A stretch of DNA of 60,529 nt, counting the filler, from Basidioascus undulatus (taxonomy: Eukaryota), in assembly GCA_000826855.1 (NCBI GenBank). It is 5 parts of 5 records of this genome, joined end to end, with 100 filler letters (N's around TTAATTAATTAA, not from the genome) between each part and the next. Parts side by side here need not be neighbours in the genome. Positions count along the whole stretch, not along the records: positions 12,130 to 24,155 come from JTLS01000956.1; 4 more parts are not named here. The stretch is one strand, 5' to 3'. A program made the translations under genes and the position numbers. Below the pieces are notes generated by a model. The model made no database searches. It was not told the DNA's origin and worked only from the letters and a program-made list of their open reading frames with translations. Of the stretch, positions 15,964 through 36,000 are shown one piece after another. Positions within the stretch are counted from its first letter, which is position 1; each line of letters opens with the position of its first letter.

Positions 15964-17338
15964 TTATGCCCTCTTCTCCTCTCCGGCCTCATGCCGTGCC
16001 TTCCCAGCCTCGTTCTCCAACCCATCCAGCAGCTCGTCGCCCTCCTCGCTCAGACCCTTGACCGACCGCTCGATCTTCCTGCGCTCCCTGCGGCGCTCCG
16101 CCCTCCGCAGCTCCTTCTCCGTCTTGACCTTGCCGAGGTCGACGAACTGCCACTTGCCCCTGACGGACTTGGCCTGATCCTGGACGCGCTTGCCCGTCAA
16201 GTCAAACTCGATCTCCTCCGTCTCCTTCGCCTTGGTCTCCTGCGCGCGCACCGCGCGCTCGATGTCCTCGATCTGCGCCGCGGCCGCCGAGACGCGGCCG
16301 TACTCGTTGTCCTCGAGCACGGCCCACACGGTCGGGTCGCCGAGGGACTGTTTGCGCGGCAGGCGCGGGTTCGACGGGCTCGACGCGGGCGGGGGCACGG
16401 CGGAGGACTCGGCGGGCTCGGGGTCGACCGGCTGCGTCGCGGAAAGGAGCTCGAGGATTTGCGCGCTCGACGATGCCTTGCTCGCGCCCTTCCGCGATGT
16501 AGGGACGCCGAGGTGCGACTCCATGCCGGCGAGGTGGTGTACTTGCAACGGCTTGCCCTGCATCCAGCGCGAGCAACATCGTGTCAGCATGGCTCGCTTG
16601 TGCCAGGGAAAGATGGATGCGGAGAAGCATGTTCAGAGATTAATCAAGTTTCTAACCATGGTTGGGTCTTCAAGACTAATCGAAATATTTTGATAAAGCT
16701 CATCATTCATGCTTGTAGACCGCGAGTCTCTCCATGCACCAGGCGCTGACGCCGCGCCGCCGTGCAACACAAAGGAAACAACCAAGCTCACCTGCGCAAC
16801 CCACTCGTCCTCCAGCGCCTTCAACCGCAGGATCGCGCGCACGCGGTCGATGGAGACGTTGAAGTCCTGTGACAGCTGGCGGGGCGAGAACTCCTTCGGA
16901 TCCCGCTTGTGCAAGAGCGCCATCTGGGACTTGATCGTGTCGGAGATGGGCGGGGGCGGCTTGAAAGTGGGGTTGAGGGGGAATGGCTGCATCCACCCAA
17001 TCAGACATCCAGCATGAGCTCCCACCGGAGCCTGCCGAGACCCAAGGAAGAAGAAGACGCACCGTCGCTCCGATCCAATTCGGCTTCCCCGGCGTCCCGT
17101 CCTTGAACTTCGCGCCCTCCCCTTTCGTCAACCACTCCTTCACCGGCATGTCCATCCGCGCCCGCCCGCCGATGGACCGCTCCCCGTCGTCGCCCGCCTG
17201 CTTTTTCCGACGCCCGCGCGCGCCGCGAACAGGGAGGTCCGGCTCGACGAAGTCGTCCGCGGATGGAGGGGCGGGGAACTGCTGCGAGAGCCGCGCGGAG
17301 GTGCGCAAACCGCGGCGCGCAATCTGCGTGGACGCCAT
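15964..17338 (-). CDS. MRPS35: Mitochondrial ribosomal protein mS45 (Bot1/MRPS35 family), 3 exons
   Basis: Arg/Ser-rich presequence MASTQIARRGLRTSARL, PNWIGAT spliced to PFPLNPTFKPPPPISD, RQLSQDFNVSIDRVRAILRLKALEDEW, then GKPLQ...GMESHLGV. Confidence 0.85.
16625..16714 (-). ncRNA. Intronic box C/D snoRNA
   Basis: Inside the long (~225 nt) intron 2 of mS45. 7-bp terminal stem AAGCATG/CATGCTT, box C ATGATGA (16706-16700), box D CTGA (16636-16633), candidate D' (TTGA) and C' (ATGGTTA), and a guide TTCGATTAGTCTT antisense to conserved LSU rRNA AAGACUAAUCGAA. Confidence 0.88.
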
Positions 17339-23390: not shown

Positions 23391-23463
23391 GGCCGCTTAA
23401 CTCAGTTGGTAGAGTGTTTGCTTAACACGCAAAATGTCGCAGGATCGAGCCCTGCAGTGGTCA
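23391..23463 (+). tRNA. tRNA-Val(AAC), intronless
   Basis: Cloverleaf: acceptor GGCCGCT/AGTGGTC, D stem ACTC/GAGT, anticodon stem TTTGC/GCAAA with loop TTAACAC, T stem GCAGG/CCTGC, discriminator A. TTTT follows immediately. Confidence 0.93.
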
Positions 23464-30129: not shown

Positions 30130-33054
30130 TCAGTTCCACCCTCTCAGCTTGCCCACGCGCTCCCAGACCTCCCCGCCGCCCGCGTCCTTGCCCTCCCTCC
30201 ACTTGCGCGCGTCCCCAGCCTCGCACGCCTCGCGCCACTTGTCCATCTCGTCCCACTCCACGTCCAGCGCCCTGACGACGTTGCCGAGGTACCCCAAGTC
30301 GCTCGCGAGCTGGCGTGCGCCGATCTCGCTCAGCGGCGCACGCAGCGCGGGGAGCATTGTGCCCGTCAAGTGCGAGAGGAGCGTGAGCGTGAGACTGCTG
30401 AGCCACGTGCCGAGCACCATTTCGGCCGGGAGCTGCTCTTCCTCCGCGCCTGCCTGGCTGAGCGGGAGCGCATCGACAAAGGGGAGCGTCTCGACGCTGT
30501 GCGCGAGCGCGCGGTCATCCACCACGTACGACTCAAAGAGCCCGGGCAGGTTGAGCAAGCCCTCGCCCACGCGCGCAATCGTCTCGGTCGGGGAGAGCGA
30601 GAACGTCGGGACGGCGATCGATCCTGGGCGGGCGGCGGGCGGGGACGCGCCCCAGACTGGGAGGGACGGGTAGGGCGCGAGGTGCGCGAGGAGAGGGGAG
30701 AGAATCGTCCGCTGCAGAAGCTGCTGCGTCGAGGCCGTCAGCGTCTTGAGCGCGGAGGCCGTGCGCGGGAGGAGCCGCGGGGTAGGCGCTTGCGCGGGCA
30801 CGGCGGGTGACGGGGGCGTGGGCGCTGAGGCGCTGGGCGCGGGGGAGGGGAGGAACGCCGACTCGGTTCGCCGATGTTCGGGGCGGGAGGGTGTCGTCGG
30901 CGTCTGCGCTGCAGCACTGCTGACGCTGCGCGAGTCGGACCGGCGGTGCTCCAACTTCGGCGTGACGGCCGTGGCAGCCGGCGAAGGCGGGGCGGGCGCG
31001 GGGTCAAACGTCGCGATGAGGGTTTGGAGCTCGAGGGAATTGAGCGCGCTCTGCTGGAGGAGACTCAGGGCGGCCCTAGGACGCCCTTTTGGCGGTGCAG
31101 GCGGGAAGTACCCCGGGCCTCCGCTGCCTCCGCTGCCGCCCTCGAGCGCGTGCAGCTCCTTCGCGACGGACTCGACCTTGCTCCGCGCCGCTTCCTCGAA
31201 CCGCTTCAGCCGGTCTCCGACCTCACGGCACGTCTCGAGAAGGCGCAGGCTGAGCTGGAGCACCGCCAGGTCCTCCGGCGTGTAGTCGAGGTCCGCTGCG
31301 GCGCCCCCAGCACCTTCGGCACCAGACGACGGCTTGTGGCCGTCGAGCGTTGCGCTCGCGCGCGCGAAGAAGCCCGAGAGCGCGGAGTCGAGCGTGGATA
31401 GGAGCGCGGGGAGCGCGAACCCAGCAGTGAAGATGACGCAGCGCGCGAGGGCGTCATCGGCCAGCGCGAATGCACGGGAGGCCTTGTCGCGCAGCGCTTT
31501 GGCGCCGTCCGCGGGGTGCAGTAGCCGCGGGGGCTCGTCCCAGATGGTACGGAGCTGAGGGTCGAGCGCGCGGCGCTCGAGCGTCGCGTATGATGTCTGG
31601 AACTCAAGGAAGGGCTCGAGCAGCGCGACCTCCCATGGCTCTTCTGGGGCAGCCGACGGCGCGCCGTAGAGGCCTCCGCCCGTCCCTGGGAGGGCGAGGA
31701 AGTTGGGGCGCGAGTCGGTGGCGGAAACGCTGAGACGGTGGCTGGTGAGACGGCGGGAGAGGCGCTTAGCTGACCGCTGTGCGGCGGGGGAGGGTGTGGG
31801 ACCAGCGCTGACGGGGGAGTGCTCTGAGATGGGAGAGGCGATAGGGGATGCCGGTGGGAGGAGCTTCGCTGTAGTCGCGTGCGCGAAGAGGACGAACGCG
31901 ACGGTGTGCTCGTACGCGGCGATGAGGTCCGCGAGGCCGGTGGAGGAGGCGAGTTCGGAGAGGGGGGTCGGGAACGAGGGCGAAAGGGCGTCGATGGTGG
32001 AGAGGAGGAACGCCGAGATGGTCGGGAGCGGATCGGGGAAGATGAGGGGCACCGTGTCCGTCTCCTCCACGAGCAGGTTCTGCAGCGCCTTGAACCACGT
32101 CGGCAGGACGTCCACGACGCTCGCCTGCGCGAGCTCCTTCGCCCAAAGCTCCACCACGTCTCCGCGCCTCGTCCCGTTCCAGTAGCCCCTAAACTCCTCC
32201 TCGCGCTCGATCCGCCCAAACACCCCAAAGTACGCCTTGCACGCGTCGACGTCGCGCGCCTGGACCGCCGCGACGAGCGCGCTGCTCAGCGCCGCCTCGA
32301 GCCCGTTCTGGAGCGAGAAGAGCAGAGACCGACGGGAATCGTACTCGGGTGTGTTGGCGAACACGCCCAGGCTCGAGGCTGCTTCGGCGAGCCGGTCTGC
32401 CGCGCGCGCGTGCGCCGACTCGGCGATGAGCGCGGAGACCTCGGGCTCTAGCGTGGACCACGACTCGGCCTCGCGAAGGACGGCGTGCGCAGCGGTCATA
32501 TGGCTCTGGACGGTGTGCAGGTATCGGAGGCGGTCGAGCGCCTGCGTCGTAGGATCTTCGTCGGAGGCGGAGGCGGCGCCCGAGGTGGATGAGGCAGGGG
32601 CAGCTTTGAGCTGGACGGCGCGCAGAGAATGGCGCAGCGCCGACGCGTTCTCGCGCATGAACTGGAGGTCGTAGTTCAGTCGGGGGACAGTGCGCGACAC
32701 GTCAGCGATGGTGCGCTCGAGCGTGGATGCCGTCGCGGCTGCAGCGACCTCGAGGCGGGTGAGGAGCGAGTTGACGCGCTCGTCAACCTCGGCCAGGTCC
32801 GTACTGCTGGAGGCTGAGGTGGTGTTGTTGGTGGTAGAGGGGGAGGGGGAGAGGAGGTCGTTGAGCCAGGCGGTGACGGAGGGATAGGCGTCGAGGGAGG
32901 CGGCGAGCGCGGCGGAGGAGGAGCTCGAGAAGGGATCGTCTGGGGTTGTGGTCGTCTTGCGGGAGATGGGAGGCGGGGACGCAGCGGATTCGGTCAATAC
33001 CGGGAGCGCAGAGGTGCGCTGCGAGCGCCGAGGGAGAGGTGTGCTGGCCGCCAT
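30130..33054 (-). CDS. COG7: Conserved oligomeric Golgi complex subunit 7 (single long ORF)
   Basis: Uninterrupted 974-codon ORF from MAASTP with DVSRTVPRLNYDLQFMRE, LREAESWSTLE, LQNGLEAAL, FSLSPTETIARVGEGLLNLP and GARQLASDLGYLGNVVRAL. Confidence 0.85.
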   Translation of the reverse strand: MAASTPLPRRSQRTSALPVLTESAASPPPISRKTTTTPDDPFSSSSSAALAASLDAYPSVTAWLNDLLSPSPSTTNNTTSASSSTDLAEVDERVNSLLTRLEVAAAATASTLERTIADVSRTVPRLNYDLQFMRENASALRHSLRAVQLKAAPASSTSGAASASDEDPTTQALDRLRYLHTVQSHMTAAHAVLREAESWSTLEPEVSALIAESAHARAADRLAEAASSLGVFANTPEYDSRRSLLFSLQNGLEAALSSALVAAVQARDVDACKAYFGVFGRIEREEEFRGYWNGTRRGDVVELWAKELAQASVVDVLPTWFKALQNLLVEETDTVPLIFPDPLPTISAFLLSTIDALSPSFPTPLSELASSTGLADLIAAYEHTVAFVLFAHATTAKLLPPASPIASPISEHSPVSAGPTPSPAAQRSAKRLSRRLTSHRLSVSATDSRPNFLALPGTGGGLYGAPSAAPEEPWEVALLEPFLEFQTSYATLERRALDPQLRTIWDEPPRLLHPADGAKALRDKASRAFALADDALARCVIFTAGFALPALLSTLDSALSGFFARASATLDGHKPSSGAEGAGGAAADLDYTPEDLAVLQLSLRLLETCREVGDRLKRFEEAARSKVESVAKELHALEGGSGGSGGPGYFPPAPPKGRPRAALSLLQQSALNSLELQTLIATFDPAPAPPSPAATAVTPKLEHRRSDSRSVSSAAAQTPTTPSRPEHRRTESAFLPSPAPSASAPTPPSPAVPAQAPTPRLLPRTASALKTLTASTQQLLQRTILSPLLAHLAPYPSLPVWGASPPAARPGSIAVPTFSLSPTETIARVGEGLLNLPGLFESYVVDDRALAHSVETLPFVDALPLSQAGAEEEQLPAEMVLGTWLSSLTLTLLSHLTGTMLPALRAPLSEIGARQLASDLGYLGNVVRALDVEWDEMDKWREACEAGDARKWREGKDAGGGEVWERVGKLRGWN

Positions 33055-36000
33055 TTTGATCTGTGGGAACGCGTTCAGCCACAAAAGCATGGATGTCGGA
33101 AGAACAGCACTCACCGCTTGTGGCCGCCCTCGTGCTCACTGTCTACGCCGAGCCACCTCCTTTTGCGATTTTTGCCTGAAAGGTTGATTCCTATAGCGTC
33201 AGAACAGTGTCACGGGCCACTGGGTGAAAGCGCTTGTGCAGCATGCTCGGAGGTAGAGGCAGGCGCTGAACTGCCTCGCAGGGAAACGGCAGACAATCCC
33301 CTACAGGAGGTATTATTCTTCCAACCCTGCAGTCGCTTCCGACTCCATGACCGCAGCCAGGTCTCCCTTCACCTCCCTGGAGCGTAGCATGAGCAGCGAG
33401 CGCACCTTGCAACCTGCGCCTCCAAGGCTGAATCTCCAAACTTCGGTATGAGAAGGCCGAATAATATGGCGCAGTGTATCTCCCGAATAAAGGCTAGTTT
33501 GTGCGTGTACAGTTATGATGCGGAGGAGTTCAGACAAGAGGATGTGAGCACCCGAGGCATCAGTGGCCAGCGAGTCGCGCTGGGAACGCGTTTCCTTTCG
33601 GCCACTGTGTATTCTCATGGAGCCGAAACGACTGCGGGAGTTCATCTCGCGGTCCGCTTCGCCTACAGAACTATTAAGTGGTATAGGGAACCCACATCTT
33701 GTGCTTTGAATGAGTAATGCACAAATTTCCAGGACACAGTGTCTGGAATTGGTCATACAGCCCTGTGGGACGAAAGCGCAGGCTTGGGGCAGGCTGCGGA
33801 ATTATTCCGCCCGATGTTGTGTCTGTGCCTCGGCCACTCTCGCAACCAAGTGCAGCTCGAGAAGGTTTGAGCTTGAAGCGATATATCACCTGTGTGAACA
33901 GTACTACATCTGTCGGTATAAACTTGAGATGAGAGTAGTGATGCCGGGGAGTGATTTACGTACGCTCCTGCTCCCAACGCTGCTCGGTCCGTCTTTCCTT
34001 GTTTTCCACCAAGTTCAACTATGACCAAGCGCTCAAAGACCTCTCCGCATTTGTCCAGCATCACAACCTTGGCAAGGTTCTCGTCTACGTCCTCATGGAG
34101 ACGATCCTCAATTCCCGCCTTTGCGGCTGGATCCCCACGAATGTAGCTGTTGCCTTCCTGATAGCTGCGCCGTTCCCCGTAGACACGCTCACAAGGCTGG
34201 TGCATTATCTCGGGCTGTGCCATAGTGTTTACATAATTGACATTCCGATTGCCTGGCTCGGTTTCATCTGACGTTCTGTTAGCTATGCGCCAGAGCCTTC
34301 GTCTCGTCACGACTAGTTACCTGACGCTGTACACCTGATTCATTTCTGACTCCCCTCTTTCTCCCGATGATGGTACCCCCCCGCAACTGGCATCCCGCAT
34401 TTCGCTCGCTCCCGCGTCCGCACATGCATCTCGTTTCACTGCACTCTCCACATTCCCGTCGTTCGCTTTACCATTTTTCGCGCTTCAGACCTGACTCGAG
34501 CCACTGTCACACACGACTGACGTCCGCGCCTGACTCCGTCCATGTGTCGCTCTGTGCAACTTTGTGTGGGTAGGAACGTTCAGGCTTGAGGCTGCTGACT
34601 GACTGCGTCGACGTGCAGAAAGGTCTCAGACTGAGGTGTGGTGGAATGATGCGTTGGCCTGCAACAACGGAACGCAGCTCGAGAGGATTGTTGAATCTCT
34701 TAAATATTGTCTAAATATGCTCTGCAGTTGCCACAGACGCAGAACAGGCTCGTAGTCGCACGCGATTGCATCTAGAGCTTCGCCATTCCCGGTTCATGAT
34801 CGCTTTAGCCCAACTGCCGACTAAGGCTCGAAAGTCCAACAAACTCCAAAGGCGCTGGAGCGCTGCTTAAACCCTTGCTTATTTAACTTGATACTGTAAG
34901 AACACTTCGAATCCGTCTTGACACACAAGCGAGTGAGAAAGGCTTCGACCGACGAAGCCTAAGGAGGAACGTGCAGTGTGCAGTTTGCGCTCGCGACTGT
35001 GTCCAGCTTTTGCGGATATTTCTTAGGGTAAAGTCTCTTCACGTGACAAGATTTTGTAATTTGAGCCATAAGAAGACGGTATTTTTATTATACAGGCAAC
35101 GTTTGCTTAGGTGAACTGTGCTGGGTGCGGGTGCTTCGTGGTTTCGTTCGGTCTACGAGACCACAGGTCCAAGACACTTTCAGCATGACAGGAGTTCCAA
35201 AAACTTCTTGAAAGAGATATTTAAGTTGATTTGTCCCTCAATCTCGCCAGCATGCGGCCCAATGAGCCTCTCCCATAGCTCACGAGTTATGTCGTTGATC
35301 TGGCAGGAGAGAAGTCGACGTGTGCCAACCGCTCCTCACGACCGTGTGCAAGGACTCGTGATCTTTGTGTCTGTTAGTATCTAACGCTGACATTTATTAT
35401 GTGCGCCCGACTGCGACGCATCACTGAGCTGAAGGACGTTCCACGCCGAAGCCCGACCGACACCCTGTACAGGTGGTGGTGACCGTGCGAGGCCTGGTCT
35501 TCTCGTCATGGACTTCTCGGGACGGGCTTGCTAGGGATCGGGGATGGAATGGTCGAAGTCATGCCACTGGGAGCTCCCTCGTCGCTGCGTCGGGTGCCGT
35601 CCTCCGCTGGGTGAAAGCGCTGAGAAGACAGATACAACAATGCACAGTCGCAGCACAAAGTAGCATCAACGAAGACATGTAATCACATTCTCCCAAAGAC
35701 CCAGCTAAATCACGAGCTCTAAAGCGTATACGTGAGTGTCACAAAGCAGCAGTAGTACAGTTGAAGCAAACGAACAAACAAAGCACGAGTAAGCGGGGCG
35801 TTCGATCCGGTCGACACGATACGAGTGGGGGGAAAAGGGTAAGGGTAAACTACTCAGGGTGGGGCGAGTGCGAATATGATCGCTGCTCTCGGGATACGTG
35901 TAGTATAATTCAAGCTAGTTAGGAAGGGTAGGAAGGGGGTGGGAGTACAACAGCGCGGGATATGTGAGGCTATGCGAGCTTGAGTGTGTGTATGGGATGG

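Follow-up and report, generated by a model that had tools for sequence, protein, structure and literature searches.

The window analysed here is a stretch of 60,529 nucleotides (nt) of Basidioascus undulatus DNA (assembly GCA_000826855.1), five parts joined end to end with filler letters between them, and our subject is an element of the box C/D class of snoRNAs (small nucleolar RNAs) on its minus strand, inside an intron of the gene for the mitochondrial ribosomal protein mS45 (Bot1p). An earlier note on this DNA had placed such an element at 16625..16714, describing it as an AT-rich island of 90 nt, with boxes and a terminal stem, within an unusually long intron of a mitoribosomal protein gene. 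Each part of this description was borne out: boxes, 7-bp stem and guide are all present, and the host gene reads as follows.

17063..17338, minus strand: mS45 exon 1, an open frame with its ATG at 17338; limits from the GT/AG reading
16987..17062, minus strand: mS45 intron 1, 76 nt
16792..16986, minus strand: mS45 exon 2, with the Bot1p/mS45 domain (Pfam PF12298)
16558..16791, minus strand: mS45 intron 2, the snoRNA host, 234 nt, GUGAGC...CAG; placed by reading frames and sequence
15967..16557, minus strand: mS45 exon 3, beginning GKPLQV...; stop codon at 15966..15964

Identification of the host gene comes from exon 2, on which the Bot1p family PF12298 scored 69.8 bits against a curated cut-off of 23 (E 4.2e-19), whilst exons 1 and 3 gave no Pfam match. 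The same domain is carried by 50 of 50 exon 2 homologues, several of them named 37S ribosomal protein S35, mitochondrial, and ascomycete relatives of the host protein are named mS45. At the protein level, exon 2 is 60-61% identical to its counterparts in Trametes and Moniliophthora and 55% identical to that of Malassezia. Intron 2 is 3.1 times as long as intron 1 (234 versus 76 nt), and the two 90-nt windows that cover the element have a GC content of 0.37, compared with 0.58-0.79 on either side. In CUGAC, the putative branch site, the A stands at 16584, which is 41 nt past the snoRNA 3' end, and the 3' splice site follows 67 nt past that end. Hirose and Steitz reportedly found, in 2001, that a snoRNA-to-branch-A spacing of about this size is typical of intronic box C/D snoRNAs.

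Within intron 2 the element is built as listed below, where LSU and SSU denote large- and small-subunit rRNA.

16625..16714, minus strand: whole box C/D snoRNA, 90 nt including the 7-bp terminal stem
16708..16714, minus strand: 5' arm of the terminal stem, AAGCAUG, pairing with 16631..16625 and present in the minimum free energy (MFE) fold
16700..16706, minus strand: box C, AUGAUGA, from the sequence; one A separates it from the 5' arm
Between box C and the D' antisense element, minus strand: A/U-rich spacer of 15 nt, from the sequence
16672..16684, minus strand: D' antisense element UUCGAUUAGUCUU, 13/13 Watson-Crick to LSU 5'-AAGACUAAUCGAA-3'
16666..16671, minus strand: GAAGAC, directly after UUCGAUUAGUCUU and followed by CCAACC
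16667..16670, minus strand: D' box AAGA, as assigned in the published family; alternative UUGA at 16673..16670
16653..16659, minus strand: internal motif AUGGUUA, probably a degenerate C' box (UGGUUA)
16637..16648, minus strand: pre-box-D region CUUGAUUAAUCU, preceded by GAAA; doubtful as a guide
16639..16648, minus strand: decamer CUUGAUUAAU within the pre-box-D region, complementary to SSU AUUAAUCAAG
16633..16636, minus strand: box D, CUGA, from the sequence; one A, then the 3' arm
16625..16631, minus strand: 3' arm of the terminal stem, CAUGCUU, pairing with AAGCAUG

The element thus has the hallmarks of the box C/D class, namely RUGAUGA and CUGA towards its 5' and 3' ends, respectively, a terminal stem and an rRNA antisense stretch of at least 10 nt, and its MFE fold retains all seven terminal base pairs. 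The internal D' (AAGA or UUGA) and C' (UGGUUA) boxes are degenerate candidates only, yet they are strictly conserved in the family described below. Overlapping AUGGUUA there is also a perfect 10-nt palindrome, AACCAUGGUU (16654..16663, minus strand). The core of the pre-box-D guide, GAUUAAUC, is itself palindromic and resembles the core of the D' guide, GAUUAGUC, and because of this likeness the MFE fold pairs both guide regions together.

Complementarity to rRNA was assessed on eukaryotic ribosomal DNA (rDNA) contaminating prokaryote assemblies, together with one contig from a viral collection, as a stand-in for the organism's own rDNA; rRNAs were located with Rfam, L125 and L112 being ascomycete-type pieces and L132 Saccharomyces-type. 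The LSU sequence AAGACTAATCGAA was found once per locus in all four LSU rDNA loci examined and pairs 13/13 with UUCGAUUAGUCUU, the duplex energy being -17.8 kcal/mol. Among 2000 shuffled 17-mer guides, only 2 gave a 13-bp Watson-Crick match at a comparable position in the 5.4-kb rRNA set. The antisense match to a conserved LSU segment, which the earlier note had pointed out, is real and rare. As an observation apart, eukaryotic rDNA contigs of plant-, fungus- and protist-like kinds were seen as contamination in at least 40 prokaryote assemblies or metagenome-assembled genomes (L111-L150).

The same guide and target site are already published, and the element is not a new kind of RNA. Judged by shared motifs, it is the orthologue of Schizosaccharomyces pombe snR83 and Neurospora crassa Nc CD39 (Nc_CD_39 in snoStrip); the earlier proposal of an uncharacterised rRNA methylation has to be given up, as the guide is on record as snR83 (25S-Am949) and Nc CD39 (26S-Am897). 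Papers retrieved by their sequence strings were all on 28S primers or probes. In the window, in Nc CD39 and in three Schizosaccharomyces snR83 sequences, the guide is followed by GAAGAC and, 5-14 nt later, by RUGGUUA; UCGAUUAGUCUUGAAGAC plus RUGGUUA is what the published relatives and the window have in common. The D' guide in each case contains (U)UCGAUUAGUCUU, complementary to LSU AAGACUAAUCGA(A), and the published members are listed as intronic, as is the window element in mS45 intron 2.

Nc CD39 (EU780962; Liu et al. 2009, PMC2780460) is a 73-nt, cDNA-cloned, intronic snoRNA of chromosome I that carries UUCGAUUAGUCUUGAAGAC and then CAUGGUUA. It was assigned to 26S-Am897 (13/0, D'), a methylation that was predicted there, not mapped, and snR83 was given as its S. 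pombe homologue, with no counterpart listed for budding yeast, Arabidopsis or human (PMC2780460). With the window element it shares the identical 13-nt guide, UUGAAGAC, CAUGGUUA, an intronic location and the same predicted LSU nucleotide; it differs in its length as cloned (73 versus 90 nt) and in its D guide, GCCUUUUUUCAA, which is unlike that of the window and was assigned a second predicted target, 26S-Am375 (PMC2780460). The S. pombe relative, snR83 (AJ617351; Diao et al. 2014, PMC4138321), is intronic, lies on chromosome III, is assigned to 25S-Am949 (12/0) and has the layout AUGAUGC ... UCGAUUAGUCUUGAAGAC ... GUGGUUA ... CUGA. It resembles the window element in box C, in guide UCGAUUAGUCUU followed by GAAGAC, in GUGGUUA, in box D, in its intronic position and in its target, the LSU A of GACUAAUC, whereas its guide, at 12 nt, is one nucleotide shorter and its pre-box-D region is unrelated. 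Am949 is counted among the sites identified by dNTP-dependent primer extension and is given as absent in human, plants and budding yeast (PMC4138321).

In snoStrip the family is kept as Nc_CD_39, and one of four novel Candida albicans snoRNAs has the Nc_CD_39 target-binding region (Canzler et al. 2018, PMC5824354). Also on record are Afu-199 and Afu-210, two orphan C/D snoRNAs from introns of Aspergillus fumigatus (PMC2377427), either of which may or may not belong to this family. Distinct from this family are snR60 of S. cerevisiae, U80 of human and plants, Nc CD48 and S. pombe snR60-II, which are likewise C/D guides acting on the same LSU stretch but use another guide for another nucleotide (a G lying 9 nt 5') and have no sequence in common with the window element beyond the boxes. 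The present element adds one snoRNA gene to the annotation of B. undulatus and extends to a basidiomycete a family known from Taphrinomycotina and Pezizomycotina, with a related guide in C. albicans; the CD_39 records may already include such relatives.

The target nucleotide was placed by counting along L132 from the LSU 5' end. The contexts of the U18, snR39b, snR39/59, snR60-5' and snR60-3' sites stand there at 649, 805, 807, 817 and 908, which we take to be the S. cerevisiae site numbers A649, G805, A807, A817 and G908. The number A807 is printed in PMC8476143. On this scale the guide stretch reads G908 ... G916 A917 C918 U919 A920 A921. The S. pombe sites 837, 839, 849 and 940 are offset from it by +32 and the N. 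crassa sites 785, 797 and 888 by -20, so that Am949 and Am897 are one and the same nucleotide, equivalent to S. cerevisiae A917. In GA*CUAAUC it is the starred A, and it lies 9 nt 3' of G908, the nucleotide that snR60/U80 modify, in agreement with the earlier suggestion that the target is an A on the 3' side of that G. A placing of S. cerevisiae G805/A807/A817 within the LSU GGGGCGAAAGACUAAUCGAACC stretch was also considered and was ruled out by the targets in Additional file 4 of PMC2780460 together with the L132 count. By the rule that the fifth position upstream of the box marks the target, the published Am897 and Am949 fit only if D' is AAGA; a D' box of UUGA would instead point to the A920 equivalent.

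Orthologues were sought among metagenome contigs as exact matches to the 18-mer TTCGATTAGTCTTGAAGA, which gave at least 109 loci, and a snoRNA-like filter required RTGGTTA and then CTGA downstream of the 18-mer. Among the 109 matches listed, 78 have the snoRNA-like layout, 76 of these with a C-box-like motif no more than 45 nt upstream, and the other 31 lack it. Seven loci with GAAGAAC and no RUGGUUA (L019, L028, L042, L046, L059, L077, L080) were set aside. Five more (L053, L066, L086, L094, L097) were considered as a far-removed variant in which the C' box is the canonical GUGAUGA, and were treated as chance matches in coding sequence, since in L053 an open frame of 411 codons spans the match and Rfam gave no hit.

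The window and 56 distinct metagenomic orthologues make up an alignment, A1, of 57 distinct sequences. GAAGAC is present in all 78 snoRNA-like loci listed, its final C lying outside the search pattern; RUGGUUA is likewise present in all 78, having served as a filter, and it also occurs in the published sequences, which were selected independently. In the box C region of A1, no variation occurs at T15 and G16, while G13, A14 and A17 are kept in at least 90%. Flanking stems of at least 5 bp, differing in sequence, were found in 25 of the 57 family members, compared with a mean of 9.0 and a maximum of 17 when the partners were permuted (0 of 1000 permutations reached 25).

The genomic setting of these loci is equally consistent. 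A Bot1p-family coding match ends no more than 250 nt upstream on the same strand in 65 of the 78 snoRNA-like loci listed, and 6 of the 13 loci without one have less than 250 nt of upstream sequence; among the 31 non-snoRNA loci listed, no upstream mS45 exon match was found. In L027 the upstream exon is 99% identical to the Penicillium canescens 37S ribosomal protein S35, mitochondrial (mS45), and the intron falls at a position identical to that in the window (...RSQ/GKPL... and ...VAQ/GKPL..., respectively). As one of these two is a basidiomycete and the other is Penicillium-type, the snoRNA and its host intron are common to ascomycetes and basidiomycetes. The conservation in orthologous mS45 introns that the earlier note had named as a check is present, and residence in this mS45 intron is widely conserved. 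Such conserved residence helps to explain why intron 2 has been retained and why it is longer than its neighbour.

The snoRNA of S. pombe probably sits in a host other than bot1: snR83 is on chromosome III and bot1 presumably on chromosome II. Host-gene intron positions kept across large parts of fungi are also described for snR59 in RPL7 and snR191 in NOG2 (PMC8476143), with the difference that the host in the window codes for a component of the mitochondrial and not the cytosolic ribosome. Among the metagenomic loci there is, in addition, a basidiomycete-like subgroup (L002, L004, L008, L015, L018, L021, L036, L050, L056, L063, L064, L071, L074, L084, L087, L090, L106), in which the host exon shares 58-65% identity with an agaric mS45 and the box C variant, ACGAUGA, lies within a local inverted repeat, GACUC...GAGUC, with no obvious terminal stem.

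With the architecture, the rare LSU complementarity, the family motifs and the conserved host intron all observed, we consider it very probable that the element works as an intron-encoded box C/D snoRNA, orthologous to snR83/Nc CD39, in a basidiomycete. Its most likely role, predicted for B. undulatus, would be 2'-O-methylation of the LSU A of GACUAAUC, and the RNA is predicted to be expressed, assembled into a ribonucleoprotein (snoRNP) and active in methylation in this fungus. Following the established box C/D pathway, from which the steps are taken, the snoRNA would be transcribed within the mS45 pre-mRNA, and Snu13, Nop56, Nop58 and fibrillarin/Nop1 would assemble on the C/D kink-turn closed by the terminal stem; splicing and debranching, and then exonuclease trimming, would release a particle of about 90 nt. 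The 13-nt element before the D' box would then pair with LSU 5'-AAGACUAAUCGAA-3', so that fibrillarin would act on whichever nucleotide is paired with guide position five, counted upstream from D'. If D' is AAGA, the modified nucleotide would be the A of GA*CUAAUC, that is S. cerevisiae-equivalent A917, S. pombe A949 and N. crassa A897. This A belongs to a universally conserved LSU stretch and is given as unmethylated in budding yeast, plants and human (Diao et al., PMC4138321), which makes it a candidate fungus-specific modification, one already published as such.

Several points weigh against this interpretation. The D' and C' boxes match CUGA and UGAUGA poorly, which leaves the exact target nucleotide uncertain, so that in B. 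undulatus it is taken over from the relatives. The experimental status of Am949 comes from one main-text sentence of PMC4138321. The invariance of the 18-mer, TGGTTA and CTGA in A1 is partly a matter of construction, these being the search pattern and the filter. Finally, Rfam 15 at gathering score has no family for the element or for 15 orthologous loci, and a scan of the window likewise gave no snoRNA family at that score; with E of up to 10 there were only weak, generic C/D matches, over 16624/16625..16715, the snoR26 model scoring 20.6 bits (threshold 47) and Z173 20.5 bits (threshold 70).

As there is no Rfam model for the snR83/CD39 family, standard pipelines will miss its members, and A1, with its 57 distinct sequences, could seed one. 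The missing model and the widespread, exactly conserved residence in the mS45 intron go beyond the papers cited here.

A further possibility, which would add to the snR83/CD39 assignment and not replace it, is that the element is a double guide, with CUUGAUUAAUCU also directing 2'-O-methylation of the second U of SSU AUUAAUCAAG. The snR54/U59 site is 9 nt to the 3' side of this predicted U, which by our own count would be S. cerevisiae-equivalent U965; to our knowledge, no modification has been recorded at this U. The earlier note had pointed to this 10-nt match, and the match itself is real: among the SSU loci, L138 and L150, both plant-type, contain the decamer ATTAATCAAG, L125, of ascomycete type, has ATTAATCAGG in its place and so introduces one G-U pair, and in L130 the match was not found. 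Pairing comprises 10 contiguous Watson-Crick pairs that begin at position 3 and cover the fifth position upstream of box D, but the two positions adjoining box D are unpaired and the duplex is short, AU-rich and of -9.9 kcal/mol. How rare the match appears varies with the rRNA set, since it is equalled by only 68 of 2000 shuffled guides against the AAG-type set, in which SSU reads AUUAAUCAAG, but by 260 of 2000 against the AGG-type set, in which it reads AUUAAUCAGG; the guide role thus lies within chance.

Comparison within the family argues in both directions. The 16 nt before box D take 46 distinct forms among the 57 A1 sequences, and none of the 45 others resembles that of the window, the basidiomycete-like group included, nor is the decamer carried by the published relatives, Nc CD39 and snR83, which have other sequences upstream of box D. 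Against this, the pre-box-D slot does gain lineage-specific guides within the family (the GCGAGCCUCU members and L109), as Canzler et al. described in general for second guides (PMC5824354). The GCGAGCCUCU D guide occurs in 9 forms and 15 distinct sequences and forms 10-11 Watson-Crick pairs with LSU GGAGGCUCGCA(G)(C), which stands at position 856 of L112; it looks like an acquired, lineage-specific second guide; the loci of this subgroup are L022, L024, L025, L032, L044, L045, L048, L057, L061, L065, L067, L073, L075, L076, L096, L103 and L104. In L109 (255-340, minus strand), the pre-box-D sequence AACAUUUCGCUCCUAU matches LSU AUAGGGGCGAAA with 11 Watson-Crick pairs, at the snR60/U80 G site. 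Because that site is 9 nt from the family target, a single snoRNA may guide two neighbouring methylations there. As the slot is used in some lineages, we still consider the SSU match of the window, as a doubtful addition. That this lineage gained an SSU second guide and, separately, that retention of the mS45 intron across ascomycetes and basidiomycetes reflects selection to express a modifier of the cytosolic ribosome together with a mitoribosome protein would be a somewhat less likely proposition still.

It is a good deal more improbable that the snoRNP pairs with LSU without methylating it, acting as a folding or assembly helper, a role that has been put forward for some C/D snoRNAs that do not methylate, with D'/C' boxes too poorly formed to hold fibrillarin in place. 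The candidates for D' (AAGA, UUGA) and for C' (UGGUUA) are indeed off consensus, yet GAAGAC and RUGGUUA are kept in all members more strictly than is usual. Degenerate D'/C' boxes are, however, common in methylating eukaryotic snoRNAs; section 5 of PMC2780460 remarks on such degeneracy, and PMC4138321 reports Am949 as one of the methylation sites found in the rRNA of S. pombe. Least probable of all, and very much so, is an inactive relic, a genome copy no longer expressed or no longer assembled into a snoRNP, since boxes, guide and the perfect 7-bp terminal stem are all intact, the AT-rich composition is kept inside a GC-rich intron and the position relative to the branch site is maintained.

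Elsewhere in the window, an open reading frame of 986 codons at 30130..33090 (minus strand) resembles COG7, conserved oligomeric Golgi complex subunit 7 (PF10191 relatives). Its best named matches are in Calocera, Dacryopinax, Tulasnella and other Basidiomycota at just 35-40% identity, which suggests that the source is a basidiomycete without a close relative in the protein collection. The sole Rfam match at gathering score in the window is a tRNA gene (RF00005, 60.1 bits) at 23391..23463 on the plus strand.

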